53,919 nucleotides of DNA from a virus (Duplodnaviria > Caudoviricetes): IMG/VR virus record IMGVR_UViG_3300032285_000220, positions 1 through 53,919 of that record; one strand, 5' to 3'. The translations under genes and the position numbers were made by a program. Below the pieces are notes generated by a model, which did no database searches, was not told where the DNA came from, and saw only the letters and a program-made list of their open reading frames with translations. Position 1 is the stretch's first letter. Each line of letters starts with the position of its first letter. Shown here one piece after another: positions 1,416-36,041 of this stretch.

Positions 1416-1925
1416 ATGATGCAATATGATGTAAAACAAGGCCATTTAGATCAAAGCGGCTACTATGTAAAATATCCGGTACGCGTTAAAGGCGTATCAT
1501 TTACAGGTACAGCTTCTGCTGGATATCTAATTCTATTTGATACCTTATCAACCCCAGTATCTGCTTCTGTAACCTATGCTCGTTCTGGTACTACTGTAAC
1601 TGTTACTAAGGTAGCTCACGGTTTAAATACTGGTGATAGTATAGGCATACATTTTGAAGCTGGCACAGGTGGTATAGCTACTGATGGTACATATGTTATT
1701 ACTAAAACAGGCGCAGATACATTTACTTTAACTGATATTAATACAGGTACTATTACAGGCGGTACAGCTATTTATGCACTTGGTAGATGGTTAATGACAT
1801 ATCAATCAACAGCTGGCGATACTTATAATAACGTACCTTTTATTCCAGGTGAAGGTGTTTATGCGCAAAATGGCGTATACGGTTACTTATCTAATGTAGA
1901 CGCAGCACAAATATTCTATGGCTAA
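1416..1925 (+). CDS. Virion structural protein with FCCH-like beta insertion
   Basis: AAGGAG RBS; motif TVTKVAHGLNTGDSI...YVITKTGADTFTL is common in phage structural proteins. Confidence 0.55.
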   Translation: MMQYDVKQGHLDQSGYYVKYPVRVKGVSFTGTASAGYLILFDTLSTPVSASVTYARSGTTVTVTKVAHGLNTGDSIGIHFEAGTGGIATDGTYVITKTGADTFTLTDINTGTITGGTAIYALGRWLMTYQSTAGDTYNNVPFIPGEGVYAQNGVYGYLSNVDAAQIFYG

Positions 1926-2181
1926 TAAGAAAAAAGGTCCTAGCTTAGCAGTTGGACGTGGTGAGAAGCTCCCTGTGTCTAAAGGCGCAGGTCTTACCGC
2001 TAAAGGACGTGCTAAATATAATGCAGCAACAGGATCAAATTTAAAGGCTCCTCAACCACAAGGTGGACCTCGTAAGAAGTCATTTTGTGCAAGGATGTCT
2101 GGAATGCCTGGTCCTATGAAAGATGAAAAAGGTAGACCCACTCGTAAGGCTGCTTCTTTAAAAAGGTGGAATTGTAAATGA
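1918..2181 (+). CDS. Small basic phage protein (DUF6321-like)
   Basis: Lys/Arg-rich; motif RKKSFCARMSG...PTRKAASLKRWNC. Confidence 0.55.
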   Translation: MANKKKGPSLAVGRGEKLPVSKGAGLTAKGRAKYNAATGSNLKAPQPQGGPRKKSFCARMSGMPGPMKDEKGRPTRKAASLKRWNCK

Positions 2182-2369
2182 TAAAACAAATAAATGATGT
2201 TAACGAACATACAAAGCATCTTATTGATGGCGCTTCTATTGCTACTGTTATGGGAACGCTAATGAATTGGTTACCAGCAGTCGCTGCACTATTTTCAATC
2301 GTATGGACAGCTATTCGTATATATGAAACTAAAACTGTTCAAAAATGGTTAAAAAAAGATGCCGAGTAA
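2178..2369 (+). CDS. Small membrane protein (holin-like)
   Basis: Hydrophobic segment(s) IATVMGTLMNWLPAVAALFSIVWTAI with a basic C-terminus; overlaps both neighbours. Confidence 0.55.
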   Translation: MIKQINDVNEHTKHLIDGASIATVMGTLMNWLPAVAALFSIVWTAIRIYETKTVQKWLKKDAE

Positions 2370-2739
2370 ATCAAAAGCACAACATAATTTAATGGCAGCT
2401 GCGGCTCACAACCCAGCATTTGCTAAGAAGGTCGGTGTTCCTGTAAGTGTCGCTCAGGAATTTAACAAAGCGGACAAAGGTAAAAAATTTGGGAGTGGTG
2501 GTATGGCTAAATCAGACATGAAAGAAGATTCAAAAATGGACATGGCTCAAGACAAAGCTATGATTAAATCAGCAATCAAACAGCATGATGACCAATTACA
2601 TGGTGGTAAAAAAACAACTTTAAAATTAGCTAAAGGTGGTTCAGCTTCATCACGTGCTGATGGATGTGCTACTAAAGGTAAAACAAAAGGTACTATTATC
2701 TCCATGTGTGGTGGCGGTATGTATAAAAAAGGTAAATAA
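2359..2739 (+). CDS. Small Lys-rich protein with RADGC-x-TKGKTKG motif
   Basis: Genome-typical codon usage; C-terminal motif shared with 2742-2987. Confidence 0.7.
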   Translation: MPSKSKAQHNLMAAAAHNPAFAKKVGVPVSVAQEFNKADKGKKFGSGGMAKSDMKEDSKMDMAQDKAMIKSAIKQHDDQLHGGKKTTLKLAKGGSASSRADGCATKGKTKGTIISMCGGGMYKKGK

Positions 2740-2741
2740 AT

Positions 2742-2987
2742 ATGGATAAAGACGCTGAAAAAAGATATGAAAATCTAACGCCAAAAGAAAAATATGATTC
2801 AGCTATTGAAGCGGATAAAGCTCCTTGGAATCCATTAAAAGCTGCAAAAGAAATGATAGTAGAAAAGATTTCTCCTAAAAAAGAAGAAATGAAACCTGTT
2901 AAAAAAATGGCTAAAGGTGGCATGACTGCTTCTAAACGTGCTGATGGTTGTTGCACTAAAGGTAAAACTAAAGGAAGGATTGTTTAA
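2742..2987 (+). CDS. Small Lys-rich protein with RADGC-x-TKGKTKG motif
   Basis: Paralogous C-terminus AKGGMTASKRADGCCTKGKTKG. Confidence 0.7.
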   Translation: MDKDAEKRYENLTPKEKYDSAIEADKAPWNPLKAAKEMIVEKISPKKEEMKPVKKMAKGGMTASKRADGCCTKGKTKGRIV

Positions 2988-2989
2988 TC

Positions 2990-3166
2990 ATGGCAGAAAA
3001 ATGGATTCAAAAAGCAATATCAAAACCAGGATCATTAAAAAAATCACTTGGTGTTAAAAAAGGTGAAAAAATTCCAGCTGGTAAATTAGCTAAAGCTGCT
3101 AAATCAAAAGGTAAAATGGGTCAACGAGCTCGTTTAGCTGAAACTTTAAAAGGTCTTAAAAAATAA
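2990..3166 (+). CDS. Small Lys-rich protein, 58 aa (not in ORF track)
   Basis: Translated by hand: MAEKWIQKAISKPGSLKKSLGVKKGEKIPAGKLAKAAKSKGKMGQRARLAETLKGLKK. AAGGA upstream; TAATG coupling to the next gene. Confidence 0.75.
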   Translation: MAEKWIQKAISKPGSLKKSLGVKKGEKIPAGKLAKAAKSKGKMGQRARLAETLKGLKK

Positions 3167-3426
3167 TGAGACCTTCACGTGGTATGGGCGCTATAAAGAA
3201 AACTAAAATTCCTAGTGCTACTGAAAATACTATGCCTAAAGGCAAGGTTAAAGCTCGTCGTGATAACACAGACTTTACTCAGTTTAAAGAAGGTGGACCT
3301 GTAGGACTTTATGCAAATATAAATGCTCGTAAGAAAAAGGGAATATCTAGATCTAAATCAAAATCAACAATAGACCCTAAAGCATATGCAAATATGAAAG
3401 CAGGCTTCCCTAAAGGTAAAAAATAA
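3166..3426 (+). CDS. Small Lys-rich protein
   Basis: TAATG coupling on both sides; motifs RGMGA and GLYANINARKK. Confidence 0.7.
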   Translation: MRPSRGMGAIKKTKIPSATENTMPKGKVKARRDNTDFTQFKEGGPVGLYANINARKKKGISRSKSKSTIDPKAYANMKAGFPKGKK

Positions 3427-4367
3427 TGGTAGATAGAACCTCAGGTGTAAGTACCTTTAATTTAGATTTAAATAATCTAGTTGAAGACGCATTTGAAAGA
3501 TGTGGTCAAGAACTTCGTACAGGTTATGATTTAAGAACCGCAAGGCGCTCCCTTAATATTATGACTGCTGAATGGGCCAATCGTGGTATTAACTTGTGGA
3601 CTGTAGAACCTGGTCAAATTACGTTAAACCAAAATCAAATTATGTATGCATTGCCTACTGATACAGTAGACTTGCTTGATATGGTGACACGTACTCAAAC
3701 CGGTGTAAACCAGCAAGATATTAATATTAATCGTATTAGCGAGTCAACCTATATTACAATACCTAATAAAAATGCTACAGGTCGTCCTATTCAAGTTTGG
3801 ATTAATAGACAAAGTGGTCAGGAAAACCCTACTAATATTCTTTTAAAACAAACTTTAACTGCTACTGCATCAACAGCAGCTAATCCACAAACAATTACTT
3901 TATCAAGTACAGTAGGTTTAGCTCAATTTGGATTTATTAAAATTGGTGAAGAAACAATTCAGTATGGCGGAGTAAGCGGTAATACAATTACAGGATGTAT
4001 TAGAGCAGTTAATAATACAACACTAGCTACCCATGCAATTGATGACAAAATTTATGTACAAAATTTACCTACAGTAAATGTATGGCCTGCTCCAGATCAA
4101 AGTAATTTTTACACGTTTGTGTATTACAGATTAAGACGAATTCAAGACGCAGGTAATGGAGTAACTGTAGAAGATATTCCATTTAGATTTATTCCATGCA
4201 TGGTTGCAGGATTAGCTTATTATTTAAGCCTTAAATTACCAGGTGCTGAAATGAGAATTGAAATGTTAAAAGCCGCATATGAGGAAGCATTTCAGTTAGC
4301 AGCTGATGAAGATAGAGAAAAAGCATCTGTTAGGTTTGTACCTAGAGACTCTTTCTATTATTTTTAG
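3426..4367 (+). CDS. Putative head-tail connector/virion structural protein
   Basis: N-terminus FNLDLNNLVEDAFERCG...ARRSLN...WANRGINLW and C-terminus PFRFIPCMVAGLAYY are typical of podovirus neck proteins; position in the late operon. Confidence 0.55.
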   Translation: MVDRTSGVSTFNLDLNNLVEDAFERCGQELRTGYDLRTARRSLNIMTAEWANRGINLWTVEPGQITLNQNQIMYALPTDTVDLLDMVTRTQTGVNQQDININRISESTYITIPNKNATGRPIQVWINRQSGQENPTNILLKQTLTATASTAANPQTITLSSTVGLAQFGFIKIGEETIQYGGVSGNTITGCIRAVNNTTLATHAIDDKIYVQNLPTVNVWPAPDQSNFYTFVYYRLRRIQDAGNGVTVEDIPFRFIPCMVAGLAYYLSLKLPGAEMRIEMLKAAYEEAFQLAADEDREKASVRFVPRDSFYYF

Positions 4368-4375
4368 GAATTTAA

Positions 4376-4807
4376 ATGCCTATTAAATATGCTAGTGGTA
4401 AAAACTCTATTGCCCAATGCGATAGATGTAATTTTAGATATCCACTAAAACAACTAAGACGCTTAGTAATTAAGACAAAAAATGTTAATATACTGGTATG
4501 TCCTGAATGCTGGGAACCGGATCAGCCACAATTATCACTAGGTTTATACCCAGTTAATGATCCGCAAGCAATACGTAATCCAAGACCTGATAGTCCTAGT
4601 TATTATCAATCAGGTTTAAATGGATTACAAATAACGGAACAAACTGGTCCAGGAGTGGATTCAACAGGTGTTCCAATGGGTGGAAGTAGAATAATTCAAT
4701 GGGGCTGGCAGCCAGTAGGTGGAGCTAGTTTTTTTGATGCAGCATTAACACCAAATTATTTGGTTGCAACAGGCGTAGTAGCAAATGTAACAGTAACAAC
4801 AACATAA
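4376..4807 (+). CDS. Hypothetical protein with N-terminal CxxC...CxxC Zn-ribbon
   Basis: CDRC...VCPECWEPDQPQ; AGGA RBS. Confidence 0.6.
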   Translation: MPIKYASGKNSIAQCDRCNFRYPLKQLRRLVIKTKNVNILVCPECWEPDQPQLSLGLYPVNDPQAIRNPRPDSPSYYQSGLNGLQITEQTGPGVDSTGVPMGGSRIIQWGWQPVGGASFFDAALTPNYLVATGVVANVTVTTT

Positions 4808-4818
4808 GGAGAAATAAC

Positions 4819-5013
4819 ATGGCATTTAGAAAAGCAGCTGACGGTATTACCAAACAAGGTAAAACTAAAGGTAAAAATTTAGGTGATGATGGAGCTAAAG
4901 TTGGTATTCAAACAGGCCCAAAATCAAGTGGTAGCAAAGGTGGTAAAACTAATGCTGACATGAAAAAAATGGGTCGAGGATTAGCTAAAATTGCAGCACA
5001 GAAAAAAGGATAA
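4819..5013 (+). CDS. Small Lys-rich protein (ADG...GKTKG motif)
   Basis: AAGGAG RBS; ADGITKQGKTKG resembles the motif of 2359-2987. Confidence 0.7.
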   Translation: MAFRKAADGITKQGKTKGKNLGDDGAKVGIQTGPKSSGSKGGKTNADMKKMGRGLAKIAAQKKG

Positions 5014-5018
5014 TAATC

Positions 5019-5240
5019 ATGGCAGAATACAAACAACCTATCGTTGTGCCTAATGCTGATATTGAGTTTTCTCAAGATCCAAACAAATTAAAAGCTCAAC
5101 AACTTAATCATGGTACTGGCAGACAACGTGTTAGTGCAGGTGATCCTGGTTCTAAAGCAATTAATAGACATGGTGAAATGAAAATTCGCGGTACAGGTGC
5201 AGCTACAAAAGGTGTTAAAAGTCGCGGTCCGATGGCGTAA
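5019..5240 (+). CDS. Small basic protein (RGTGAATKG motif)
   Basis: AAGGA RBS; basic C-terminus. Confidence 0.65.
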   Translation: MAEYKQPIVVPNADIEFSQDPNKLKAQQLNHGTGRQRVSAGDPGSKAINRHGEMKIRGTGAATKGVKSRGPMA

Positions 5241-5243
5241 TAC

Positions 5244-5879
5244 ATGAATTATTCGCAGCTAGTTACAGAGATACAGAACTATACAGAGAACCAGTTCACG
5301 ACTGATGTAGTAAATACGTTTATTACTCAAGCTGAACAAAGGATCTATAATACAGTTCAATTACCGGCATTACGTAAGAATGTCACAGGCACAACTACAG
5401 CTGGTAATAAGTATCTAGCTATGCCTACTAATTGGTTAGCTACGTTTAGCTTAGCGATTATTAATGGGGCTAATGAGTATACCTATCTTTTAAATAAAGA
5501 TGTAAACTTTATTAGACAGTCTTATCCAGATACGGATTCTGACTTTTATGGAACCCCTGCTTATTATGCAGTGTTTGATCAGAACTCATTTATTATGGGA
5601 CCTACTCCAGACGCTTCATACGCAGTTGAGCTTCATTATTTTTATTATCCTGAGTCTATTACAACTGCAGGTACATCTTGGTTAGGTGATAATTTTAGTT
5701 CTACATTATTATATGGCTCATTATTAGAAGCTTATACTTACATGAAGGGCGAAGCAGATGTAATGGCTAATTATAAAGCTAGATACGATGAAGCTATGGT
5801 TCTATTGAAACAACTTTCAGACGGCAAAGATAGACAAGATGCATATAGGAGTGGGCAGGTTAGATACCCAGTTAAATAA
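5244..5879 (+). CDS. Putative head-tail adaptor (tail tubular protein A-like)
   Basis: MNYSQLVTEIQNYTE...FITQAEQRI; GPTPD...VELHYFY.P; LLYGSLLEA pattern of phage adaptor proteins. Confidence 0.6.
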   Translation: MNYSQLVTEIQNYTENQFTTDVVNTFITQAEQRIYNTVQLPALRKNVTGTTTAGNKYLAMPTNWLATFSLAIINGANEYTYLLNKDVNFIRQSYPDTDSDFYGTPAYYAVFDQNSFIMGPTPDASYAVELHYFYYPESITTAGTSWLGDNFSSTLLYGSLLEAYTYMKGEADVMANYKARYDEAMVLLKQLSDGKDRQDAYRSGQVRYPVK

Positions 5880-6307
5880 TGGCAATAGGACAAACCCAAA
5901 CTACTATATTTAAACTTAATTTGTTAAAGGCACTAGAGAACTTTAATGCTGGTACTCCTTATACATATAAAATAGCGCTTTATACAGCAAATGCTACTTT
6001 AAACGAAACAACAACTGCTTATACTACAGAAGGTGAAATTACTGGTACTGGATATACTGCAGGTGGAAAGACTTTAACAATAACAGGGTTGGGAAGTGAT
6101 ACGACTAACAATACAGCATATGTATCATTTTTAGATGTAACTTGGAACCCTGCAAATTTTACTACTGCTGGAGCTTTGATATATAATAGCACTACAAATG
6201 CGGCTGTCTGTATATTAAATTTTGGTAGTGATAAAACCGCAAAAAGTACATTTACAATAACATTTCCATCAGCAACCTCAACCACTGCTGTATTAAGAAT
6301 TAATTAA
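5879..6307 (+). CDS. Virion structural/tail-associated protein
   Basis: YKIALYT...GTGYTAGG...GALIYNST...LNFGSDKT pattern; TAATG coupling. Confidence 0.6.
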   Translation: MAIGQTQTTIFKLNLLKALENFNAGTPYTYKIALYTANATLNETTTAYTTEGEITGTGYTAGGKTLTITGLGSDTTNNTAYVSFLDVTWNPANFTTAGALIYNSTTNAAVCILNFGSDKTAKSTFTITFPSATSTTAVLRIN

Positions 6308-6317
6308 GGAGTCAATT

Positions 6318-6929
6318 ATGAATCAAAGAGAACAAGGCGGATTTGGCGATCAAGCTACCATTACTTTAAATGCTGGTGCGAATGCTAATGAAACTGTAGG
6401 TATTGAAGGCGTTTACAAAGTTGAATGCCGTGATGCAGCAGGTAATTTAAAATGGGAAGAATCATTTCCTAACCTAGTAAACGCTGGTGGTAAAGAGTTA
6501 ATGTTAAATACATTACTTGTAACTGCTTCAGGTTACACAAGAGTGGGTCCATATTTAGGTTTAATTTCAGGTGCTTCACCAACATTTACAGCTGCTGATA
6601 CAATGACATCACACGCTGGATGGACAGAATTTACTAACTACACAGTAGGTGGTTCAGCAGTACGAGGTACAGCTACATTTAGCTCATCAACTTCATCTGG
6701 CTCAACACCAACTAATGTAACAACATGTGCAGCAGCTGCGATTACTTACACTATTACAGGTGGCGGTGGTACAGTAGGCGGTTGTTTCTTAGTAACAGGT
6801 ACTGGTGCTTCAAGTGCACAATCTAATACTGGTGGTACATTGTATTCTGCAGGTGCATTTACAACAGCTAAAATTACAACAGCTGGCGATACAGTTTCAG
6901 TTACATACTCTACAACTGCAACAAGCTAA
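6318..6929 (+). CDS. Virion structural/tail-associated protein
   Basis: AAGGAG RBS; WEESFPNLVN.GG and GDTVSVTY motifs; Gly/Thr-rich. Confidence 0.6.
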   Translation: MNQREQGGFGDQATITLNAGANANETVGIEGVYKVECRDAAGNLKWEESFPNLVNAGGKELMLNTLLVTASGYTRVGPYLGLISGASPTFTAADTMTSHAGWTEFTNYTVGGSAVRGTATFSSSTSSGSTPTNVTTCAAAAITYTITGGGGTVGGCFLVTGTGASSAQSNTGGTLYSAGAFTTAKITTAGDTVSVTYSTTATS

Positions 6930-20272: not shown

Positions 20273-20740
20273 ATGAAAAAATTAATTATATTTTTAGTAG
20301 CTTTGTTTTTGATGGGTTGCACCATGTACACTTGGGCTGACACCACTGTAATTCAAAATAAAGGTATGCCAGTACAAAGTGCTATGGCACCAAGTATGTC
20401 TGCGTTCTCACAAGATGTTTGTGCAGTACCAGTTAGTGGTGCGGGTAACTTTGGTGTTGTATCAGTATCAGGCGGTACAGTTATGCTAGATCAAAACTGC
20501 GTTAAAATTAAGTTAGCAAAAACATTAAATGATTTAGGACTTAAAGTGGCTGCAGTATCTGTGCTATGCCAAGATCCAACTGTGTGGGATGCTATGGAAA
20601 TGAGTGGGTCACCTTGCCCTATGGGTGGTGCTGTAGGTGCTGCTGCTAAGAAAGCTTGGTTCACTAAGTATCCTGAAAGGTTTAAAAAATTATATGGCGA
20701 GGATTATAATATTCCTGCTTTGCCTCCTACTAAGGAATAA
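20273..20740 (+). CDS. Exported/periplasmic protein of unknown function (possible lipoprotein)
   Basis: Signal peptide MKKLIIFLVALFLMGC (lipobox-like LMGC, or SPase I site TWA-D); four further Cys; AAGGA RBS. Confidence 0.65.
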   Translation: MKKLIIFLVALFLMGCTMYTWADTTVIQNKGMPVQSAMAPSMSAFSQDVCAVPVSGAGNFGVVSVSGGTVMLDQNCVKIKLAKTLNDLGLKVAAVSVLCQDPTVWDAMEMSGSPCPMGGAVGAAAKKAWFTKYPERFKKLYGEDYNIPALPPTKE

Positions 20741-21884
20741 TGCATATGCATATTGTTACGCGAATCAGTGGGCGAGTTATGGGCCTGTATTCTCAAGTCT
20801 TGGCGTTACTCAAGGCACTACTATGCAAGCTTGTCAACAACTTGCGTGCCAAATATATCCAGGTATTCCAGAGTGTGGCATGTTTTTACAACCAGCCTGC
20901 TCAAATCAAACTGAGTATCAGTCGCTTAGTTGCCAACCTCATTATTCAGGCGCAGTTAATCAAAGCAGGACTTATACATGTTCTTCACAGAGTTGGGGAC
21001 CTTGGACAACAACTTCTAACAATTGCACACCAGATCCTCCAACGTGTCAAAGCTCTTTTTCAACGAGGACACTAAGTTGCCAACCGCATTTTTCAGGACT
21101 TATATCACAGACAAATACGGTAACGTGTCCAGACCCGTATGGATCTCCTGTAGAAACAGGGTACATAACTACATCAAATTCATGCGCACCCGATCCGGCT
21201 ACGTGCAGTCCATCAGTGCAAACTCAGTCAGTAGCATGTCCAGTGGGTTACAATGGTACAATAATACAAAATCGTTCTTCAAGTTGCTCGGATCCATATG
21301 GTTCGCCAACATGGACATCATGGTCGACAACGTCAGATACTTGCACGATGACAGCGACGAACTTAAACAACCCAACATCGCCAATAAGTCCGATCAGTCC
21401 AACGAATCCGAACTCGGTGATAAGCAAGTCAATGGCGACTGTGGAATCTGTAACGGTACAAGACCTAACTGCTACTGCACCTACCCCATCAACAACAAGT
21501 GTGGATACACCAAAATCAGAAAGTCAATCTGGGACAGCAACGACTTCAACAAGTCAACAGGCAAACGGTACTACGACGACATCGGGTACCGATAAGAAAG
21601 AAAATATAAAAGCCCCAGACGTACCAAAGGGCAAAGATTTAGTACCAGGATTTGGCATAGTAATGTCTATGCAGCTTTTAAACTCAGGCTACAACCTGCA
21701 GCAAGAACAAATGAAAGAATATATTAATTTAATACAGGAACAAGAATATGGACAACAACAAAACATACTCCTTGAATTTATCAGCGCAAATGATACTGGG
21801 AATTCTATTTTCAATACTAGTGCCATTAGGTGGCGCGGTTTACTACGGGATAACCCTCTTCAACGATTTGACCTCGACGATTGA
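20694..21884 (+). CDS. Exported Cys-rich repeat protein
   Basis: Probable start MARIIIFLLCLLLRNNAYA (signal peptide); three ~50-aa 4-Cys repeats; S/T/P-rich linker. Confidence 0.65.
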   Translation: MARIIIFLLCLLLRNNAYAYCYANQWASYGPVFSSLGVTQGTTMQACQQLACQIYPGIPECGMFLQPACSNQTEYQSLSCQPHYSGAVNQSRTYTCSSQSWGPWTTTSNNCTPDPPTCQSSFSTRTLSCQPHFSGLISQTNTVTCPDPYGSPVETGYITTSNSCAPDPATCSPSVQTQSVACPVGYNGTIIQNRSSSCSDPYGSPTWTSWSTTSDTCTMTATNLNNPTSPISPISPTNPNSVISKSMATVESVTVQDLTATAPTPSTTSVDTPKSESQSGTATTSTSQQANGTTTTSGTDKKENIKAPDVPKGKDLVPGFGIVMSMQLLNSGYNLQQEQMKEYINLIQEQEYGQQQNILLEFISANDTGNSIFNTSAIRWRGLLRDNPLQRFDLDD

Positions 21885-22143
21885 GGAAGTAAAAAAGATG
21901 AGCTCAGTTGAGACTCGCATCGTAGTATTAGAAGATAGATCTAAATCAGTAGAACGTCAATTAGTTGATGTGATGATGTCTAACAATAGATCTCTTGAAA
22001 AAGCTAATGAAGCTTATGGTAAAGCCATTGAAGCAAACAGTGTTGCTAAAAGTACTGCAGATAAAGTTGTAGATACCGTAACTAATGTTAAAGACGAAAT
22101 GAAACAATTAAGAAAGGCAATGGTTAATCCATTGAATAACTAA
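21748..22143 (+). CDS. Membrane-anchored coiled-coil protein
   Basis: AGGA RBS; one TM helix (MILGILFSILVPLGGAVYYGI), then heptad-rich helix ending NPLNN; overlaps the previous gene by 137 nt. Confidence 0.65.
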   Translation: MDNNKTYSLNLSAQMILGILFSILVPLGGAVYYGITLFNDLTSTIEEVKKMSSVETRIVVLEDRSKSVERQLVDVMMSNNRSLEKANEAYGKAIEANSVAKSTADKVVDTVTNVKDEMKQLRKAMVNPLNN

Positions 22144-28987: not shown

Positions 28988-30322
28988 ATGTATAGTAAAT
29001 CTCATGTAGGTGGCATTGATTTAAATAGAGCTCTCAATGATTTAGTTCAAGCAGGACTAAGAGATCCTAATATACTTTTAAAGTATAGTCAAAATCCTCC
29101 ACCAGAATATGGTGCTAACGGTAAAATGTTAGTTAGCTTAGCAGCTAATGCTGTTGCTCGTGATAAACAAGCCGCTAAAACTATGCAGCCTACTCCTACT
29201 AAAACTGTTGCAGAACAAGTTAATAATAAATTAGCTGCTGCTACTCAACCGCAAGGTATTGCTGGTTTAACTAATCAAGCTCCTCCTACAGAAGCAGGTA
29301 TTAATACTCCACCAGCGGAACCAGCACCTCAATCTATGGATGGTGGCGTTGCTTCATTACCTGTTGATGAAGGTATGTATAATGAACAAAATTATGTAGG
29401 TGGTGGTATTGTTTCATTTGCTAAAGCTGGTCGTGTAGAAGCACCCGAAGATTATAATTACAAATATGGTTATGAATCTTATTATGATCAACCAACAGCA
29501 GCTTTAATGGAAGTACCTACAGTTCCTACTGATGAAGATTTAAAAACACAAACCCTTGCTCTTAAAAAAGGTTTTGTAGATCCTAATTTTTATGGCACTC
29601 AAGAAAAAACATTAGCTGATCAAACAGCACAAGATGTTGCTGAATCTAAAAAAATGGGTCAAGCAGATATTTATATGGCTTTAGCTGAAGGCTTTGGTAC
29701 TACTCCTGGTGGTTTATTAAAAGGCGCCACTGCAGCGGGAATTAAAGCACGCCCTGCTATTATGGAAATGAATAAAAACATTCTAGCTGCTAAACGTTCA
29801 AACCGTGATGCTATTAATAAACTTAATCAAGCTAAATATGCTGAATCTGTGGGTGACTTTAAAACAGCTATGGAACTTAGACAATCTGCTCAAAAAGATG
29901 CTTTTGAAGCTAAGAAAACTAATGCTACTCTTGAAACACAAATTGGAGTTGCACGTGCTAAAAATAAAGGTACTAAAGGTACTGATTTAGCAAAACTTAG
30001 ACGTGATATTGATAAACTAGCAGTAGAAGATTTTGAAAAGACTCATGGTGTAGGTTCATTTAATACTTTATTTATGAAGAATAAAGCTAAGTACTTAGAT
30101 GAATTTAATGCTCTTCGTAGACAACACGAAGACTATATACTTGGTGGTATTTCTGCTGATCCTACCAAAGAACAAACTAAGTTTAATGCTACTCAACCTT
30201 TAAGAGCTGCATCCAATAAAGGTAAAATAGTAAAAGCACCTAACGGTAAATCCTATAGACAAGTGGGCCCTAATCAATATGAACCTTTAGGTTCAGAGGA
30301 CGAAGAAGACGACAATGGCTAA
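28988..30322 (+). CDS. Internal virion/ejection protein
   Basis: AGGA RBS; helical, QGIAGL and GGIVSFA motifs; position before the giant gene. Confidence 0.55.
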   Translation: MYSKSHVGGIDLNRALNDLVQAGLRDPNILLKYSQNPPPEYGANGKMLVSLAANAVARDKQAAKTMQPTPTKTVAEQVNNKLAAATQPQGIAGLTNQAPPTEAGINTPPAEPAPQSMDGGVASLPVDEGMYNEQNYVGGGIVSFAKAGRVEAPEDYNYKYGYESYYDQPTAALMEVPTVPTDEDLKTQTLALKKGFVDPNFYGTQEKTLADQTAQDVAESKKMGQADIYMALAEGFGTTPGGLLKGATAAGIKARPAIMEMNKNILAAKRSNRDAINKLNQAKYAESVGDFKTAMELRQSAQKDAFEAKKTNATLETQIGVARAKNKGTKGTDLAKLRRDIDKLAVEDFEKTHGVGSFNTLFMKNKAKYLDEFNALRRQHEDYILGGISADPTKEQTKFNATQPLRAASNKGKIVKAPNGKSYRQVGPNQYEPLGSEDEEDDNG

Positions 30323-33300
30323 ATATTACACTGCTGAAGAGCTAGGGCTCAATCAAAGCAGTGAAGATCAAGAACCTGTTTCAAACAAGAAATATTTTAC
30401 TGCTGAAGAAATAGGCCTTACTCCTCAAAAAGAAGAAAAGCCTAAAGAAACTAAAAAGTTTTTAACAGCTGAAGATATTGGGTTACCTCCTGAAGAAGCT
30501 CCAAAAGAAACTACTAAAGAAGAATTAACACCTCCTACAAAACCTTCTGGTTGGACTAGAAGACTTCTTGGTGATCAAGCAGTTACATTAGCACAAGGTG
30601 CTGTTGGCCTTAGACAAATGATATCTGGAGTAGAAGATTTAATTAGCTTAGGTTATATTGGTAAAGCTAAAGATACTCTTCGTGATTTTTATAAAAGTCA
30701 TGGACTTCCTGTTCCCCCATCTGATGAAGATATTAGAACATCATTAGAAAATCTTAAATCTCCTCAACGATTATATAAAACTCAAGAAGCTGATATTGCA
30801 GCTCAAGAAGCGGCTAAAGGTAAGCCTTGGTATAAAGCGGTTCCAGCTGCTACATTAGAGTATGCTAAACGTCCTGAAGCAGCTCTTGATGTTGTAGAAC
30901 AATCTCTTCCATCTATGATTGGTAGTGAAGTTGCTATTGGTCGTAATTTATTACCTAAAGTATTTCCTAAATTAGGTGCTGTAAGTCGAAGCGCTATTTC
31001 TGAAGGTTCTGCTCAAGCTACATCAATGGCAGAACAAACACGTTTACAAAATGAAGATAAAGCTTTAACTCTTAAACAAGAAGCTGCATCTATTATAAGT
31101 GGTGTATTAACAGGAACTATGGGAGCTTTTGGGGGTAAGATTGCTCAAAAGTTAGGTTTAACTGATATTGATACTGTAATTGTAGGAGCTACAAGTAAAA
31201 CAGCTACAGCTGCAGAAAAGCAGGCAGCAAAAAGTGTATTAGCTCAAACTATTAAATCATCACTTGCTGAATCAACTTTAGAAGAACTTCCTCAATCTAT
31301 GCAAGAGCAAATTGCTCAAAACTATGCTACTGGTCGTCCATGGGATGAAGGCGTTGCAGAGGCTGGTGCAAAGGGACTTATTGCAGGTTTAGTAACTGCA
31401 GCTCCAATAACGGCTTACACTCAACATAAAGAAAATCAAGATATATATCAAAAGCAACGAGATGAACTTCATAAACAAACATTAGAAGAACAACAGAAAA
31501 AAGCTAATCCTACTCGCGATGCACAAATTAAAACTATATTTAAAGATTTAGATGAACAAGCAAAACAAACATTAGCGGAAAAACAAGCTGAAGCTGATAA
31601 ATTAAAATCAGCTCAACAAGCCCAAGTAGTTAACGAAGCTCAAGATTTGGAAAGTATGCCCGCTCCAGATCAAGGTATACTCACTGATACTACGTTAACT
31701 TCGTGGGGACTCAACAAAAACAGTAAAGCATATAAACAGTTAATTGGTAAAGACGTATCTACACCAGATGGCCGAAAGCTAATGGAGGATGCATTAGATG
31801 CACATACTGGTAAACTAAACGAACAAGCTGTAAGCACCTTTACAAATATTTTAGATCAGAAAGCTGAGGCAGCAAATGCAGGACTTGACACTGGAACAAC
31901 TACAATTAGCGATGCAATATCTGGAGGACAAAAATATGGAACTCCCGGAGGAACTCAAGGACGTTTCGGACCTACAACTAATATCAGTGGAAGTGTTGCT
32001 GGACTCACTCAAACTGGAGAAGAAACAAGCGACGATACATTAGCCGCTGAAGCAGAATCTAAATTATCTACAATCCCTGGATTCAAACGATTCTCTATTA
32101 AAAAAGCTGATGGCACAATATCTGAAGGTTGGACAAGAGATAATGCTACGGATATAGATGAACAGAAAGATGAAGAAGAAGCTAATGCTAATGAAGTTTT
32201 AAAAACTGAAGAAGACCTAGCACCTGACTTTAAAGTCACTCCTCAAAAAGTTAAAGCTGAAGAAGCTCCTGAAGTACCAACACAACAAAAGATAGGTAAA
32301 CAGTTAAAATCTCTTGATCCATCTAATCCTCTTATAGAAGGCCTATTAAATAATCAAGCTTCTGATGTAGAAATGGAAGAAGCTCAAAAAGCTATTAATG
32401 ATATTATTGCAGAACGTAAAGCTAAAAAAGTAGATCTTACTAAACCTTCAGAAATTGAAAGAGAAGAGTTTAATGTTGAAGATACTGATCTTGGTACCAA
32501 TCGTGAACTACAGCCTGAAGTAGTAGCATCAACAGCTAAAGCTAAAACATTAGGTCAAGCACTTAATATTATTCAAAATGAACATAGTGATAAAACAAGC
32601 GATGCTGAAAAGTCTATTATCAAAAAACTATTAAATATACCTAATCTAGTTCATACCAAATATCAAACAAAAACACTTAACAAATTTAAAAATACTAGAA
32701 TAGGTGGTACTTTTAATAGCCTTTTAAACAAAGTAACCTTAGATACTCAGTTTGGTAATGTTAAAGCGTTAATTCATGAAGCGGTACACTCAGCTACTGT
32801 TGCCGCCTTACGTAAAGCAGTCTATACAACACATCATGTAAACAAAAAGCTTAAGCAGGCTGGCATGAGTCCAGAAGATTATACTACTTCAGAACATGTA
32901 GGTAGAACTGAAGCTGGTAAACGTATGGTTAAAATATACAATGCTGCTTTGCAGAACTGGATGCAAAACGATAAAATTCTTAAACCGTATGGACTAAAAG
33001 ATATATTTGAGTTTACATCAGAAGCGTTATCTAATCCTGAGTTCCAAAAGTTTTTAGCAGATATACCTAGTGTTGAAGGTGGTAAAGCACAAATATCATC
33101 ACTATGGACAGACTTTGTAGAAGCAGTTAAGAAGCTTCTTAACCTAGGTGATATATCTAATACACTTCTAAATGATGTATTATCAGTTGCCCCTGAATTA
33201 ATGGAAGGTCCTAAAAAAGGTATTTTTGATAGGATTAGGGATGAAGCTTCGACAGCTGAATCCTTTGTCTATGAACAAAGAACTCAAGAAGAGATGGATC

Positions 33301-36041
33301 AACTACACGCTAGAACAGGTCAAACACGTAGACCTCGTCCTCCTAAACAAACTAAATTACAAAAGTTTGCAGCAGCTCCAATACAATCTACAGGTCAAGC
33401 AATCACTAACTTTAGAAAATGGGCATTCTCATTTGACTTTGCTGTAAATAAAAAGATACTTGATGCTATGAGAAAAGCGGGTGTTAGTATGACTGAACTA
33501 GCTAAAGCTCATATTGCATTAGAAATCTCACAAGCTTTACATGTTTCTGATATGGGAGATGCTTTCTTAGAAAGAGGTAATATAAGATTTGATCCTAGAA
33601 TATTTAAATTTTTAATTACTAACTCTAGATCTAGTATGAAAAATATTAGAGATAGAATTGATAAGTTAGCTAAGCAAAAGGGTATTGATCCTATAAAAAT
33701 GTTTGAGTATGCAAGCTCTGCATTTATTGCTAAACGTTCATTAGGTTTAAATCAACATAACGATAATCTTAAAACAGTCGTATTAAATCTTTTAAATAAA
33801 GGTAAACGTGCTGAAGCTGATGCTAGATTAAAAAGAGATTTTAAACTTGTTCATATGACTGATGCTGAAATAGAAGCAGGTTTAGAAATATTAAATGAAT
33901 ACCCTGAACTTAACGATGTCTTTGATATGTGGAATGATGTTCGTGCTAAGGTATTAAACTTTGCTAAAGACATGGGTTTATATGATACTTCAGGTGTAGA
34001 GCAACTATTAGAAATTATGGACTATGTTCCATTTAATCGTGTGTTTGAAGATGCAGAAGGCGAACGTCAAGTTGGTGGTAGAAAAGAATATACAAGAGGT
34101 TTACTTGATGCTGCCAGAGATCCTAAGTTTAAAGGTAGCTATAGAGAAATCAATAATGTGTTTGATAACATGGACAATTGGGTTAAATACATTATTAAAA
34201 AAGGTATTAATAATCACGCAGCTAAAACAAAGATTGATTTTTACAAACAATATATACCTGATGATATTAAAAAGACTACAGGTCAAAAACGTGGTCCTAA
34301 AGCTAATCCTAACTCAGTGCAGATTTGGGAAAATGTAATGGTTAATGGTGAGGAGAGAAATGTTCTTAACCGTTATGACTTCCAAGGTTTTGATGCAAAA
34401 GATATGGTTGATGGGTTTACAGGATTAGAACCTGCACTTATTAATGGCTTAAGAGATTATAGTGGTTATACGCATTGGTTAAGACAAAACATTGTTCTTT
34501 ATCCTTTATTCTCTCTATCACAAGTTTGTCAGGATACTCTTTCTGCTTTAACTTTATCAGGCGTTAAATATCCTATTATGCTGCCTTTACAAGTTATTAA
34601 AGAAATAGCTTTATCTCCTGTTGGATTAAGTCAAGCACGTAAAAGACTAAAAGAAGCTGTTATTGTAGGCGCACATGACTATTCAAAAGAATATGATCGC
34701 ATAGATAAATTAGCATCTGAAGATGGTAAGAAATACAAAACATGGAGAGCTATTAAGAAAGCTGCGCTATCACCTTTTACTGCTTTAGCTATGGGTTCTG
34801 ATAACGTTATTAGACAAGCTATCTATGCACAAACTATGTTAGAAACAAACAACGAAGCTTTAGCTATGCATAGAGCTGCAGAAATTATTAACTTTAGAAG
34901 AACAGGTTCAGGTCAAATAATTAACATTATGAGACAACTAGTTCCTTTCGTAGGTGCTAACTTACAAGCATTACATGTGTCTGGTGCTACTGTATTTGGT
35001 GAAGGTATTACTCCTGATACTAGATGGAACAACTTTAAACGTTTTGTATTAAATGGTTCTCAAGTCATGATTTTAACTTTGTTGTATTGTGCAATGATGA
35101 GTGACGATGATGACTATAAAAAACTAGATCCTGCGGAAAGAGATGGTTTCTTTATACTACCTGGTGGTTATAAGATTCCAATAAGAACTGACTTTAGTGG
35201 TTTATTCTTTAAAACATTTGCTGAACATTTATATCAAAGATTTATTGAACGTAGTGAAGATTCTAAAAAAATGAATAAAGCATTACAAGCAGGGTTAATT
35301 AAAGCTTTATCTATTCCTTCTGCTATGCCTGCTGTAACTAAACCTGCAGTAGAAGCAACTTTAAATTATAACTTCTATACTAAGAGACCTCTTATTGGTC
35401 AAAGTCAAGAAGGACTTGAACCTGAACTACAATATAGCCCAAAACATACTACTCAATTAGCTATGTTATTAGGTGAAAATTCAGGAGTATCTCCTCTTGT
35501 TTATGATAATGCTATCAGAGAATTATTAGGTTCTACTTCAGCAGTAATTAACTTTTTTACAGAAAATATGATTGCTGACATGAGAGGTGAAACTTTACCA
35601 GAGAAAACATTAAGAGAAAAATTATTAATGCTTCCTAACTTTAATTCATTTTTAGTTAAACAATATGGCACTCGTGAAATGAATGATTTATATGAATTAA
35701 ATGATGAAGTTAATAAAGCTTATCAATCATATAAGAAGTTTGAAAAACTAGCTGTTGATGAAAAAGGTCAAAAAGAATTTGAAGAATATATTAAATCAAA
35801 ACAAAATCTACTTGATTTACAACCATTAATGCAGGACATTTCACAACAATTAAAAATATTAAGAGATTATGAAAACCAAGTTATCACTGATAGTGCTATT
35901 AAAGGTCCTGAAAAACGTAAGATATTAAACGATATTGAAGAGCAAAGACGTGATATGTTGAAATATGAAGTTGATAGAGAAGATCAATCTAAAACTAGAA
36001 ATATTCAACAGTTAAGAGAACAAGCAGGATTTAACGAATAA
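30315..36041 (+). CDS. Large polyvalent/internal virion protein with zincin-like HExxH domain and LPD38-like C-terminus
   Basis: 1908 aa; ALIHEAVHSAT...EFTSEALSNPEFQ; C-terminal INFRRTG...LVPF...DDDYKKL...ERD.FFILP...EATLNYNFYTKRPL pattern. Confidence 0.7.
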   Translation: MAKYYTAEELGLNQSSEDQEPVSNKKYFTAEEIGLTPQKEEKPKETKKFLTAEDIGLPPEEAPKETTKEELTPPTKPSGWTRRLLGDQAVTLAQGAVGLRQMISGVEDLISLGYIGKAKDTLRDFYKSHGLPVPPSDEDIRTSLENLKSPQRLYKTQEADIAAQEAAKGKPWYKAVPAATLEYAKRPEAALDVVEQSLPSMIGSEVAIGRNLLPKVFPKLGAVSRSAISEGSAQATSMAEQTRLQNEDKALTLKQEAASIISGVLTGTMGAFGGKIAQKLGLTDIDTVIVGATSKTATAAEKQAAKSVLAQTIKSSLAESTLEELPQSMQEQIAQNYATGRPWDEGVAEAGAKGLIAGLVTAAPITAYTQHKENQDIYQKQRDELHKQTLEEQQKKANPTRDAQIKTIFKDLDEQAKQTLAEKQAEADKLKSAQQAQVVNEAQDLESMPAPDQGILTDTTLTSWGLNKNSKAYKQLIGKDVSTPDGRKLMEDALDAHTGKLNEQAVSTFTNILDQKAEAANAGLDTGTTTISDAISGGQKYGTPGGTQGRFGPTTNISGSVAGLTQTGEETSDDTLAAEAESKLSTIPGFKRFSIKKADGTISEGWTRDNATDIDEQKDEEEANANEVLKTEEDLAPDFKVTPQKVKAEEAPEVPTQQKIGKQLKSLDPSNPLIEGLLNNQASDVEMEEAQKAINDIIAERKAKKVDLTKPSEIEREEFNVEDTDLGTNRELQPEVVASTAKAKTLGQALNIIQNEHSDKTSDAEKSIIKKLLNIPNLVHTKYQTKTLNKFKNTRIGGTFNSLLNKVTLDTQFGNVKALIHEAVHSATVAALRKAVYTTHHVNKKLKQAGMSPEDYTTSEHVGRTEAGKRMVKIYNAALQNWMQNDKILKPYGLKDIFEFTSEALSNPEFQKFLADIPSVEGGKAQISSLWTDFVEAVKKLLNLGDISNTLLNDVLSVAPELMEGPKKGIFDRIRDEASTAESFVYEQRTQEEMDQLHARTGQTRRPRPPKQTKLQKFAAAPIQSTGQAITNFRKWAFSFDFAVNKKILDAMRKAGVSMTELAKAHIALEISQALHVSDMGDAFLERGNIRFDPRIFKFLITNSRSSMKNIRDRIDKLAKQKGIDPIKMFEYASSAFIAKRSLGLNQHNDNLKTVVLNLLNKGKRAEADARLKRDFKLVHMTDAEIEAGLEILNEYPELNDVFDMWNDVRAKVLNFAKDMGLYDTSGVEQLLEIMDYVPFNRVFEDAEGERQVGGRKEYTRGLLDAARDPKFKGSYREINNVFDNMDNWVKYIIKKGINNHAAKTKIDFYKQYIPDDIKKTTGQKRGPKANPNSVQIWENVMVNGEERNVLNRYDFQGFDAKDMVDGFTGLEPALINGLRDYSGYTHWLRQNIVLYPLFSLSQVCQDTLSALTLSGVKYPIMLPLQVIKEIALSPVGLSQARKRLKEAVIVGAHDYSKEYDRIDKLASEDGKKYKTWRAIKKAALSPFTALAMGSDNVIRQAIYAQTMLETNNEALAMHRAAEIINFRRTGSGQIINIMRQLVPFVGANLQALHVSGATVFGEGITPDTRWNNFKRFVLNGSQVMILTLLYCAMMSDDDDYKKLDPAERDGFFILPGGYKIPIRTDFSGLFFKTFAEHLYQRFIERSEDSKKMNKALQAGLIKALSIPSAMPAVTKPAVEATLNYNFYTKRPLIGQSQEGLEPELQYSPKHTTQLAMLLGENSGVSPLVYDNAIRELLGSTSAVINFFTENMIADMRGETLPEKTLREKLLMLPNFNSFLVKQYGTREMNDLYELNDEVNKAYQSYKKFEKLAVDEKGQKEFEEYIKSKQNLLDLQPLMQDISQQLKILRDYENQVITDSAIKGPEKRKILNDIEEQRRDMLKYEVDREDQSKTRNIQQLREQAGFNE
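31876..32043 (+). CDS. Overprinted 55-aa acidic helical protein nested (+1 frame) in the large gene
   Basis: GAGG RBS at 31866-31869; MQDLTLEQLQLAMQYLEDKNMELPEELKDVSDLQLISVEVLLDSLKLEKKQATIH. The host frame here is a low-complexity Gly/Thr linker with atypical codons. Confidence 0.6.
   Translation: MQDLTLEQLQLAMQYLEDKNMELPEELKDVSDLQLISVEVLLDSLKLEKKQATIH

Follow-up and report, generated by a model that had tools for sequence, protein, structure and literature searches.

A conserved small gene very probably nested out of frame in the linker of a giant phage virion-protein gene

Introduction

In bacteriophage lambda the gene Rz1 is embedded inside Rz, and in phiX174 gene B lies within A and gene E within D, an arrangement of very small genomes under size pressure. 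The two-component spanin genes of phages are described in PMC6139136 as adopting embedded, overlapped and separated architectures, and overlapping genes of viruses are reviewed in PMC8227390. Genes-within-genes were also reported for the Rpn toxin-antitoxin systems, where a small protein arises within a larger gene and the larger protein is its proposed target; in that case the small product, RpnS, starts internally in the same frame and shares its sequence with the large protein (bioRxiv 10.1101/2023.05.02.539157). Polyvalent proteins with zincin-like metallopeptidase and LPD38 domains were described by Iyer et al. 2017 (PMC5512222), and the main-text description of these proteins contains no nested small gene, the word "overlapping" having 0 occurrences. 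In the papers searched, no description of a gene nested in a polyvalent-protein gene was found.

Here we analyzed a stretch of 53,919 nucleotides from a virus of the Caudoviricetes (IMG/VR record IMGVR_UViG_3300032285_000220), hereafter the window, in which a candidate gene of 55 codons lies inside a gene of 1908 codons. All features given below are on the plus strand. At the level of sequence the arrangement resembles that of Rz1 in Rz, with a complete small same-strand gene in the +1 frame of a longer gene and a ribosome-binding site of its own. Similar to the spanin pairs, relatives carrying the two genes separately are found, here the three records L088, L089 and L090. However, Rz is a lysis gene whereas the outer gene here is that of a giant virion protein, and, in contrast to Rz1/Rz, the outer frame is unconstrained over the overlap. 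An o-spanin (Rz1-like) identity of the small protein was ruled out, as it contains no Cys, and thus no lipobox, and no hydrophobic N-terminal signal. As with the phiX174 genes, one DNA stretch would be read in two frames into two unrelated proteins, but the present genome is at least 54 kb, the overlap is located in a spacer, and the small gene also exists free-standing. The arrangement also differs from that of RpnS: here the small protein comes from another frame and bears no relation to the large one.

The giant gene and its linker

The gene that hosts the nested frame (30315-36041) is the final gene of the structural and ejection module, and it was annotated as encoding a polyvalent/internal virion protein on the basis of an LPD38 domain, its PHROG match (phrog_30335) and its neighbours. 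The Pfam LPD38 domain covers residues 1598-1765 (35106-35609) with an E-value of 4e-14 and 53.6 bits against a cut-off of 27. A zincin-like metallopeptidase block is located at 32487-33374, with the motif HEAVH at 32775-32789 and an invariant Glu downstream of it; alignment of this block from 18 giant proteins revealed that H97, E98, H101 and E175 are invariant. The block matches PDB 9sfn_G, an "Internal virion protein", with an E-value of 2e-9. With LPD38, the HExxH block and its position at the end of the virion/ejection module, the putative product fits the class of polyvalent proteins.

Across the nested gene the host frame encodes a Gly/Thr-rich linker, residues 521-577 (31875-32045). Gly and Thr each make up 21% of the residues over the overlap, compared with 6% and 6% in the remaining gene. 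The earlier note on this DNA had claimed, in addition to this linker, that the codons GGA, ACT, CTC and CCC are used here unlike in the rest of the gene. The linker and the preference for GGA were confirmed, the latter accounting for all Gly codons in the overlap (12/12) against 15/104 elsewhere in the gene (Fisher p = 2.5e-9). The share of ACT among Thr codons turned out to be ordinary (7/12 in the overlap versus 62/115 elsewhere), and the counts of CTC (1/3) and CCC (1/2) are too small for judgement.

The nested frame and its start signals

The nested gene extends from 31876 to 32043, stop included, in the +1 frame of the giant gene. Its ATG (31876-31878) is preceded at a spacing of six bases by the Shine-Dalgarno-like motif GAGG (31866-31869), and its TAG stop (32041-32043) immediately follows the codon for a conserved C-terminal His. 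The start motif, start, stop, frame and 55-residue product given in the earlier note were all reproduced exactly. The predicted product has a mass of 6.4 kDa, is acidic (pI 4.3) and lacks Cys; two helices are predicted at residues 6-17 and 32-54, and the AlphaFold2 model has a mean pLDDT of 86.3.

The length of this frame by itself is not above chance, and the excess signal is comparative. When the host gene was shuffled synonymously 500 times, 84% of the shuffles yielded at least one +1 ORF of at least 55 codons, and 6 same-strand alternative-frame ORFs of at least 55 codons occur in 24,087 nt of the window (16 genes). The host gene itself contains two longer +1 ATG-initiated ORFs of 104 and 68 codons, which served as a control: these have 2-7 stops in 13-14 more distant homologues, whereas the nested ORF has 0 stops in 16/16 homologues in the same comparison.

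Start signals of the relatives were also compared. An SD-like motif precedes 45 of the 47 unique small-gene start contexts, against a background of 11% when every ATG or GTG codon in the +1 frame of 21 host genes is counted. In one sub-clade the GAGG/ATG pair is replaced by AAGGAG/GTG, the SD and the start codon changing together. We infer that the small gene is translated from the late mRNA of the giant gene, with its own Shine-Dalgarno site and start codon serving for initiation. If ribosomes instead entered the +1 frame by a programmed frameshift while translating the giant gene, they would make a truncated N-terminal product with a 55-residue alternative tail; the location of the ORF, on the same strand as a long translated gene and in its +1 frame, would suit this. 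Several observations argue against it. Both the SD and the start codon are kept and change in concert, and the +1 frame is closed by a stop just upstream of the ORF, at 31852-31854 in the window and 3-15 codons upstream of the small-gene start in relatives. Moreover, the small gene also stands alone in relatives, and no conserved RNA structure was found, with compensatory change in 0 of 26 predicted pairs. We regard such a frameshift route as highly improbable.

Occurrence in relatives

The small gene was found in 65 records, nested in 62 and free-standing in the remaining 3, all relatives being uncultured metagenomic contigs. The ORFs that enclose the nested copies, in each case with the copy in their +1 frame, reach about 2460 codons, and SD motif, start and stop are present in 62/62 copies seen, a count to be read with the bias towards intact copies that arises because many loci were retrieved using the peptide itself. 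In the near clade the ORF, start and stop are retained in 23/23 records, with the stop position unchanged in 23/23. In the far clade the small gene is present in 22/22 loci, the GC content of which ranges from 42 to 59%. One record (L091) has ATA at the position of the ATG in its two closest relatives. Breaks of the frame in close homologues, named beforehand as the observation that would speak against the gene, were seen in none of the homologues examined.

Loci found only through the C-terminal domain of the giant protein offset the retrieval bias for the near and middle clades only; among 36 such loci, 26 carry the small gene. In all 10 loci lacking it, the giant ORF is cut at its 5' end, and the small gene is present in 20/20 of these host-found loci in which the 5' end of the giant gene lies inside the locus. 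The small proteins share 76-98% identity where the giant proteins share 27-48%.

Searches outside the metagenomic contigs were negative. Among cultured phages (50,697 records), tblastn with the family sequences P0002, P0016 and P0015 gave no credible match, and the family profile had no match in three giant genes examined, those of Planktothrix phage Pag-Yong1, Vibrio phage D274 and Pseudomonas phage F116. No relative was found in bacterial and archaeal genomes with the small-protein alignment A3 or the sequence P0016, and a locus scan with the family sequence P0010 returned no locus. Standard gene callers assign one product per DNA stretch, and the family is therefore invisible in annotated phage genomes. 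Public metagenome proteins nonetheless yield 157 clusters by the family profile, at E ≤ 1e-3 among 1.84 billion representatives, and these are mostly proteins of 50-70 residues.

Selection on the two frames

Over the overlap, the +1 frame has a dN/dS of 0.21 (bootstrap 0.14-0.29) and the host frame one of 1.46 (bootstrap 0.79-3.2), both being pairwise values computed without a tree and with the fastest site class near saturation. The host-found loci gave similar values, 0.22 (+1) and 1.59 (host) for 12 sequences and 0.30 and 1.08 for 6 sequences. At sites nonsynonymous in the host frame and synonymous in the +1 frame p is 0.537, compared with 0.076 at sites synonymous in the host frame and nonsynonymous in the +1 frame. 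The same bias is visible by codon position of the +1 frame, with 29, 10 and 41 variable columns (56 each) and, in the far clade, pairwise differences of 0.348, 0.201 and 0.466. Along the 5.7-kb giant gene, divergence at host third positions drops to a trough of 0.01-0.10 only in scan windows starting at 31881-31971. The synonymous-constraint analysis that the earlier note had suggested thus places the trough within the nested ORF, together with a +1 dN/dS of about 0.2-0.3. In addition, length differences among family members are whole codons in the peptide alignment.

As judged by these sequence comparisons, the host linker evolves without detectable constraint of its own and selection acts on the small protein. 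The expectation that the host frame is here an unconstrained Gly/Thr linker with codons dictated by the other frame is borne out by the dN/dS values and the GGA bias. The reading of the overlap bases by the giant protein would then be a freely drifting Gly/Thr spacer, and the product of the other frame an acidic two-helix protein of about 6 kDa ending in a conserved (L/V/I)-(H/Q). The small protein is kept in relatives whereas the linker sequence of the giant protein drifts, and we therefore regard 31876-32043 as very probably a real protein-coding gene that occupies the linker region of the giant gene in a different frame.

It could be argued that the ORF is untranslated and conserved as a nucleic-acid element or by chance, as chance alone can be expected to supply a frame this long in a single genome. 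We consider this barely credible: substitutions track the +1 codon positions, the family differs in length by whole codons, the +1 frame is under the constraint given above, and homologues exist free-standing. The absence of compensatory change in the 26 predicted RNA pairs also led us to reject an explanation by RNA structure.

The case is clear and statistically strong: the inner small gene is constrained while the giant outer gene merely reads through, which is the reverse of the usual picture of overprinting. It suggests that a search for hidden genes in the low-complexity linkers of other giant phage proteins would be worthwhile.

Free-standing copies and origin

Three related phages (L088, L089 and L090) carry the small gene free-standing, with strong SD sites and within the same ejection-protein module. 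In L088 the small gene begins 18 nt after the stop of the giant gene, and in L089 and L090 it directly follows the ejection-protein homologue. These copies retain the C-terminal I/V-His without an overlapping frame. In a tree of 37 peptides the resolution is too low to place either the nested or the free-standing state first. The earlier note had described the small gene as overprinted. That it is a separate gene in the +1 frame is supported, whereas its de novo birth inside the giant gene is not. Free-standing copies exist and it is the giant frame that lacks constraint, which makes de novo birth no more likely than the capture of a small gene that already existed, or a read-through across such a gene.

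Possible functions of the small protein

In 65/65 records the small gene is found inside or adjoining the ejection/giant-gene module. Since it stays with this module whether nested or free-standing, we infer that its product could quite possibly work in partnership with the ejection proteins and the giant internal protein of that module, a reading we hold tentatively. It might act as an assembly or packaging chaperone, or be co-packaged as a subunit of the giant protein, and nesting would guarantee co-expression from one message. On the other side, no single giant-protein block co-occurs with the small gene across all clades, and the family has no match that hints at an activity. If the small protein is a partner of giant ejected proteins, it would offer a handle on their virion assembly or control.

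A broader version, in which the small protein is a near-universal subunit of many giant polyvalent systems in uncultured aquatic phages and serves the folding, packaging or release of the giant protein, is possible but doubtful. The small protein is traceable across clades where block profiles no longer detect the giant proteins. If this version is true, the gene has moved between free-standing and swallowed-by-giant-ORF states, and part of the giant "linker" would therefore exist only as another gene read in the wrong frame.

The module-partner reading has also to be weighed against that of an independent effector, for example an acidic inhibitor of the mimic type that counters a host defence, or a factor in host takeover, for which the linker would be a mere expression site; in one variant the small protein enters the cell carried with the giant protein. 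The small protein is strongly acidic, small and without a family match, it accompanies giant genes that share no block detectable by six profiles, and polyvalent proteins are proposed as conflict effectors in PMC5512222. However, the presence of the gene in the module in 65/65 records suggests a functional tie to the module, and conservation as high as that given above, compared with that of the giant proteins, is unusual for a conflict protein. An independent effector thus appears rather unlikely.

The earlier note had proposed an inhibitor or chaperone of the adjacent metallopeptidase. As a built-in inhibitor or pro-peptide-like guard of the zincin-like peptidase, the small protein would occupy the active site with its C-terminal Leu/Ile-His (or Gln), mimicking a product, until packaging or ejection of the giant protein. 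The HExxH and downstream Glu are invariant in the 18 aligned giant proteins, and the peptidase block lies 250-550 residues downstream of the nested gene in most hosts. The giant protein of L088, which has the free-standing copy, shows BLASTP-detectable similarity to that of the window in the peptidase block only. Moreover, His or Gln ends 139 of the 143 short family members examined, and PMC5512222 proposes that such peptidases process polyvalent proteins. On the other side, seven host genes with the nested gene and a complete downstream part (L038, L043, L044, L082, L083, L094 and L095) contain neither HExxH nor a match to the peptidase profile, and L083 and L084 encode an identical small protein with a peptidase in L084 only. 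These seven genes weaken the inhibitor idea, and we regard a guard function as improbable.

The C-terminal residue was also considered as a turnover signal. SulA is a precedent for recognition by Lon through a C-terminal His, and the small protein could accordingly serve as a substrate of, or a decoy for, Lon or another host protease. Of the 143 short members examined, 108 end in His, 31 in Gln, 3 in Asn and 1 in Pro; the terminal His or Gln is preceded by L, V or I, and the terminal residue is retained in the free-standing copies. However, His alternates freely with Gln, and a role of the terminal residue mainly in turnover is quite improbable. Among the readings discussed, a partnership with the ejection/giant-protein module is the one we tentatively retain.

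Family and domain matches of the small protein

No match to the small protein was found in Pfam and NCBIfam, and the best hits in PHROG (E-value 0.085) and in PDB sequence profiles (E-value 0.28) are not significant. Foldseek against the PDB gave a best E-value of 1.9; rows suggesting a homeodomain-like fold (TM 0.40-0.46) are weak and were not credited. The ESM Atlas has no entry for P0002 or P0024. A search with alignment A4 found no fused forms among longer proteins. The 133-residue representative P0015 has an HTH_Tnp_1_2 domain joined to the small-protein domain.

The nested ORF and its giant host gene

Re-reading of the full IMG/VR virus record (53,919 bases, estimated completeness 85%) revealed a 55-codon ORF on the plus strand that starts with an ATG at 31876, ends with a TAG at 32041-32043 and follows a Shine-Dalgarno (SD)-like GAGG at 31866-31869. 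It lies in the +1 frame of a plus-strand giant ORF of 1908 codons (30315-36041), and the signals, length and frame given in the earlier note are all exact. The giant gene is the last of a module with a virion structural protein and a DNA-ejection-protein homologue. In its product, Pfam LPD38 scores above the cut-off (E = 4e-14), phrog_30335 matches, and the HExxH block (window 32487-33374) matches the solved 'Internal virion protein' PDB 9sfn chain G (E = 2e-9), an entry for which a literature search found no paper mentioning it. These matches and the position in the module place the host protein, at the sequence level, among the polyvalent or internal virion proteins as Iyer et al. 2017 (PMC5512222) use the term.

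In the overlap, the host-frame protein contains 21% Gly and 21% Thr, compared with 6% each elsewhere, and all 12 Gly codons are GGA, compared with 15 of 104 in the rest of the gene (p = 2.5e-9). The remark that the host frame turns here into a Gly/Thr linker with an unusual GGA usage was thus correct; both the composition and the codon bias follow from the peptide in the other frame, which is rich in Leu, Glu, Gln and Asp.

On the window genome alone the nested ORF is unremarkable. The giant gene contains two longer plus-strand +1 ORFs, of 68 codons (33241-33447) and 104 codons (34024-34338), and 84% of 500 synonymous shuffles of the gene yield a +1 ATG-ORF of at least 55 codons. The two longer ORFs are interrupted by 2-7 stops in 13-14 more distant homologues and show no synonymous-site trough along the whole-gene codon alignment, so they were rejected as genes and regarded as chance ORFs. 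The nested frame has 0 stops in 16/16 homologues, and the interruption in close homologues that the earlier note had named as counter-evidence was therefore not found.

Conservation among relatives

Searching IMG/VR with the host-frame protein sequence that surrounds the site yielded three relatives (41-55% identity in that stretch), and in each of them the +1 ORF is kept, its start and stop unchanged. Peptide pattern scans added 22 loci (16 unique sequences), each with a 55-codon ORF nested in a giant ORF. To counter ascertainment bias, 36 loci were collected with a block from the giant protein's C-terminal part, which lies 2.9 kb past the nested ORF. The peptide profile matches 26 of them (E = 4e-32 to 9e-18; next best match there E = 0.77), and in all 10 loci without a match the giant ORF is cut at its 5' end. 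The nested gene is present in 20/20 of these giant-found loci that contain the 5' end, confirming the recurrence in homologous giant genes that had been suggested as a check. Each of the 26 copies uses the +1 frame and has a terminal His; some of the peptides are just 29-42% identical to that of the window and differ from it in length by whole codons in the alignment.

A stretch of about 60 residues just upstream of the nested gene (window 31632-31874, host residues ~440-520) is among the better conserved parts of the N-terminal half of the giant protein. Its profile detects the giants of loci L064, L065 and L091; profiles of the middle and C-terminal blocks (residues 1020-1900) give no match in L064 and L065. 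This hints that the block and the nested gene may travel together. In L032, the giant gene downstream of an intact nested gene is found in two frames (1776-3800 and 3742-6603), which could reflect a frameshift, a sequencing error or a truly split gene.

Selection on the two frames

Identity to the window's giant protein is 27-48% in 14 of 15 relatives (80% in L005); for the peptides it is 76-98%. Variable columns at +1 codon positions 1, 2 and 3 number 29, 10 and 41, so the host third positions are the least variable. Along the whole-gene codon alignment, third positions of the host frame mostly diverge by ~0.4-0.6; values as low as 0.01-0.10 occur only in windows starting at 31881-31971, where synonymous-codon identity is 0.93-1.00. 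The synonymous-constraint analysis proposed earlier thus yields a trough confined to the nested ORF. The two-frame difference count gave p = 0.537 for host-nonsynonymous/+1-synonymous sites, 0.076 for host-synonymous/+1-nonsynonymous sites and 0.110 for sites nonsynonymous in both.

As pairwise estimates that ignore the tree, with the fastest site class near saturation, dN/dS values are 0.21 for the +1 frame (bootstrap 0.14-0.29) and 1.46 for the host frame in the overlap (0.79-3.2). Host-ascertained loci only gave 0.22 and 1.59 (12 sequences), and the host-ascertained middle clade 0.30 and 1.08 (6 sequences). In the far clade, whose 22 loci were retrieved with the peptide itself through the metagenome representative P0016, differences at the three +1-frame positions are 0.348, 0.201 and 0.466. 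RNA structure as an explanation was unsupported, with a consensus energy of -9.3 kcal/mol over 208 columns and 0/26 pairs compensated.

An SD-like 4-5-mer stands 6-16 bases ahead of the chosen start in 45 of 47 unique contexts, against a background of 11% (265/2368) before +1-frame ATG/GTG in 21 giant genes. In the two exceptions, L052 and L053, the start taken is a TTG, and an ATG six codons upstream is preceded by AAAGGAG. One sub-clade has AAGGAG and GTG in place of GAGG and ATG, and AAGGAG dominates in the high-GC clade. L091 (~5960-6000) has ATA at the position of the ATG in its two closest relatives, L092 and L093; a possible alternative start is a TTG eight codons downstream. Comparison across relatives shows the nested ORF to behave as a protein-coding gene that has start signals of its own and is selected at the amino-acid level, and the giant gene to read the same DNA as an apparently unconstrained spacer.

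The small protein and its family

The predicted nested product (6.4 kDa, pI 4.3) is acidic and has no Cys. The AlphaFold2 model from a 15-sequence alignment (mean pLDDT 86.3, pTM 0.63) consists of helices 6-17 and 32-54 joined by a Pro-containing loop. Residues M1, Q8, L11, P24, E26, L42, E48 and H55 are invariant in the small-protein alignment. No credible match was found in Pfam, PHROG, NCBIfam, PDB sequences or Foldseek-PDB.

Run over 1.84 billion representative proteins, a 15-peptide profile detected 157 representatives at E <= 1e-3 and 8 at E <= 1e-10. Of these family members, 143 have at most 160 residues, most of them 50-70; they end in His (108), Gln (31), Asn (3) or Pro (1), usually preceded by L, V or I. 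In all 22 loci of P0016 (42-59% GC) the small gene sits in the +1 frame of a giant ORF, with giant ORF lengths reaching 2300 codons. Five further nested copies, and three that are free-standing, were reached through other representatives. In L088, a free-standing gene of 62 codons lies 18 nt past the stop of the giant gene, behind TAGGAGG, and is followed by the primase-helicase gene that is also the neighbour in the window (28% identity, E = 2e-106). L089 and L090 have it immediately after a gene homologous to that of the window's ejection protein (50-51% identity), abutting the following ORF of the module. Tallied by contig name, with four metagenome records duplicating IMG/VR records merged, 65 records carry the small gene, 62 nested and 3 free-standing. 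Those that are free-standing retain the terminal Ile/Val-His; the residue is therefore a property of the protein itself, not a by-product of the overlap. Searches among cultured-phage records found no cultured relatives, and searches of bacterial and archaeal genomes no prophage copies. The only fused form seen is the metagenome representative P0015 (133 aa), with HTH_Tnp_1_2 (Pfam E = 9.8e-9) joined to the small-protein domain (residues 82-133).

Possible function

Nested or free-standing, the small gene always lies within the ejection and giant-gene module and never outside it, which leads us to prefer, tentatively, a partner of this module, either a chaperone for assembly or packaging or a subunit that is co-packaged. 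The protein would be translated from the late mRNA of the module, and nesting would tie its synthesis to that of the giant protein. The earlier idea of an inhibitor or chaperone of the HExxH metallopeptidase in the giant protein loses ground, because both HExxH and a peptidase-profile match are missing from seven giant genes that contain the nested gene and are complete downstream; the small protein of one of them, L083, is identical to that of the peptidase-bearing L084. Nor does any block of the window's giant protein accompany the small gene everywhere, as judged from six near-clade block profiles, which have no match in the giants of L063, L066, L076, L082, L088 and L094. By contrast, the peptide profile built from the near and middle clades detects the far-clade peptide P0016 (E = 2.2e-9, in a far larger library), a comparison only indicative because the two kinds of profile differ in depth.

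Origin and precedent

'Overprinted', in the sense of birth inside the giant gene, is only one possible origin. The inner frame is constrained, the product resembles an ordinary folded mini-protein and free-standing copies exist; thus a giant ORF reading across a pre-existing small gene, or capturing it into a spacer, is at least as likely. In a 37-peptide tree the three free-standing copies group with nested L091-L093 (support 92/99, not starred), and this tree is too weak for ordering nested and free-standing events.

The arrangement is of the known embedded-gene kind, as Rz1 in Rz (spanin architectures are treated in PMC6139136); unlike Rz1, the nested product here is not a spanin. A literature search found no paper describing nested genes in polyvalent-protein genes, and the main text of PMC5512222 has 0 occurrences of 'overlapping'. 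Elsewhere in the window, several overlapping plus-strand ORFs (20637-21884, 20740-21075, 21023-21595 and 21748-22143) occupy 20273-22143 within the tail-gene region.
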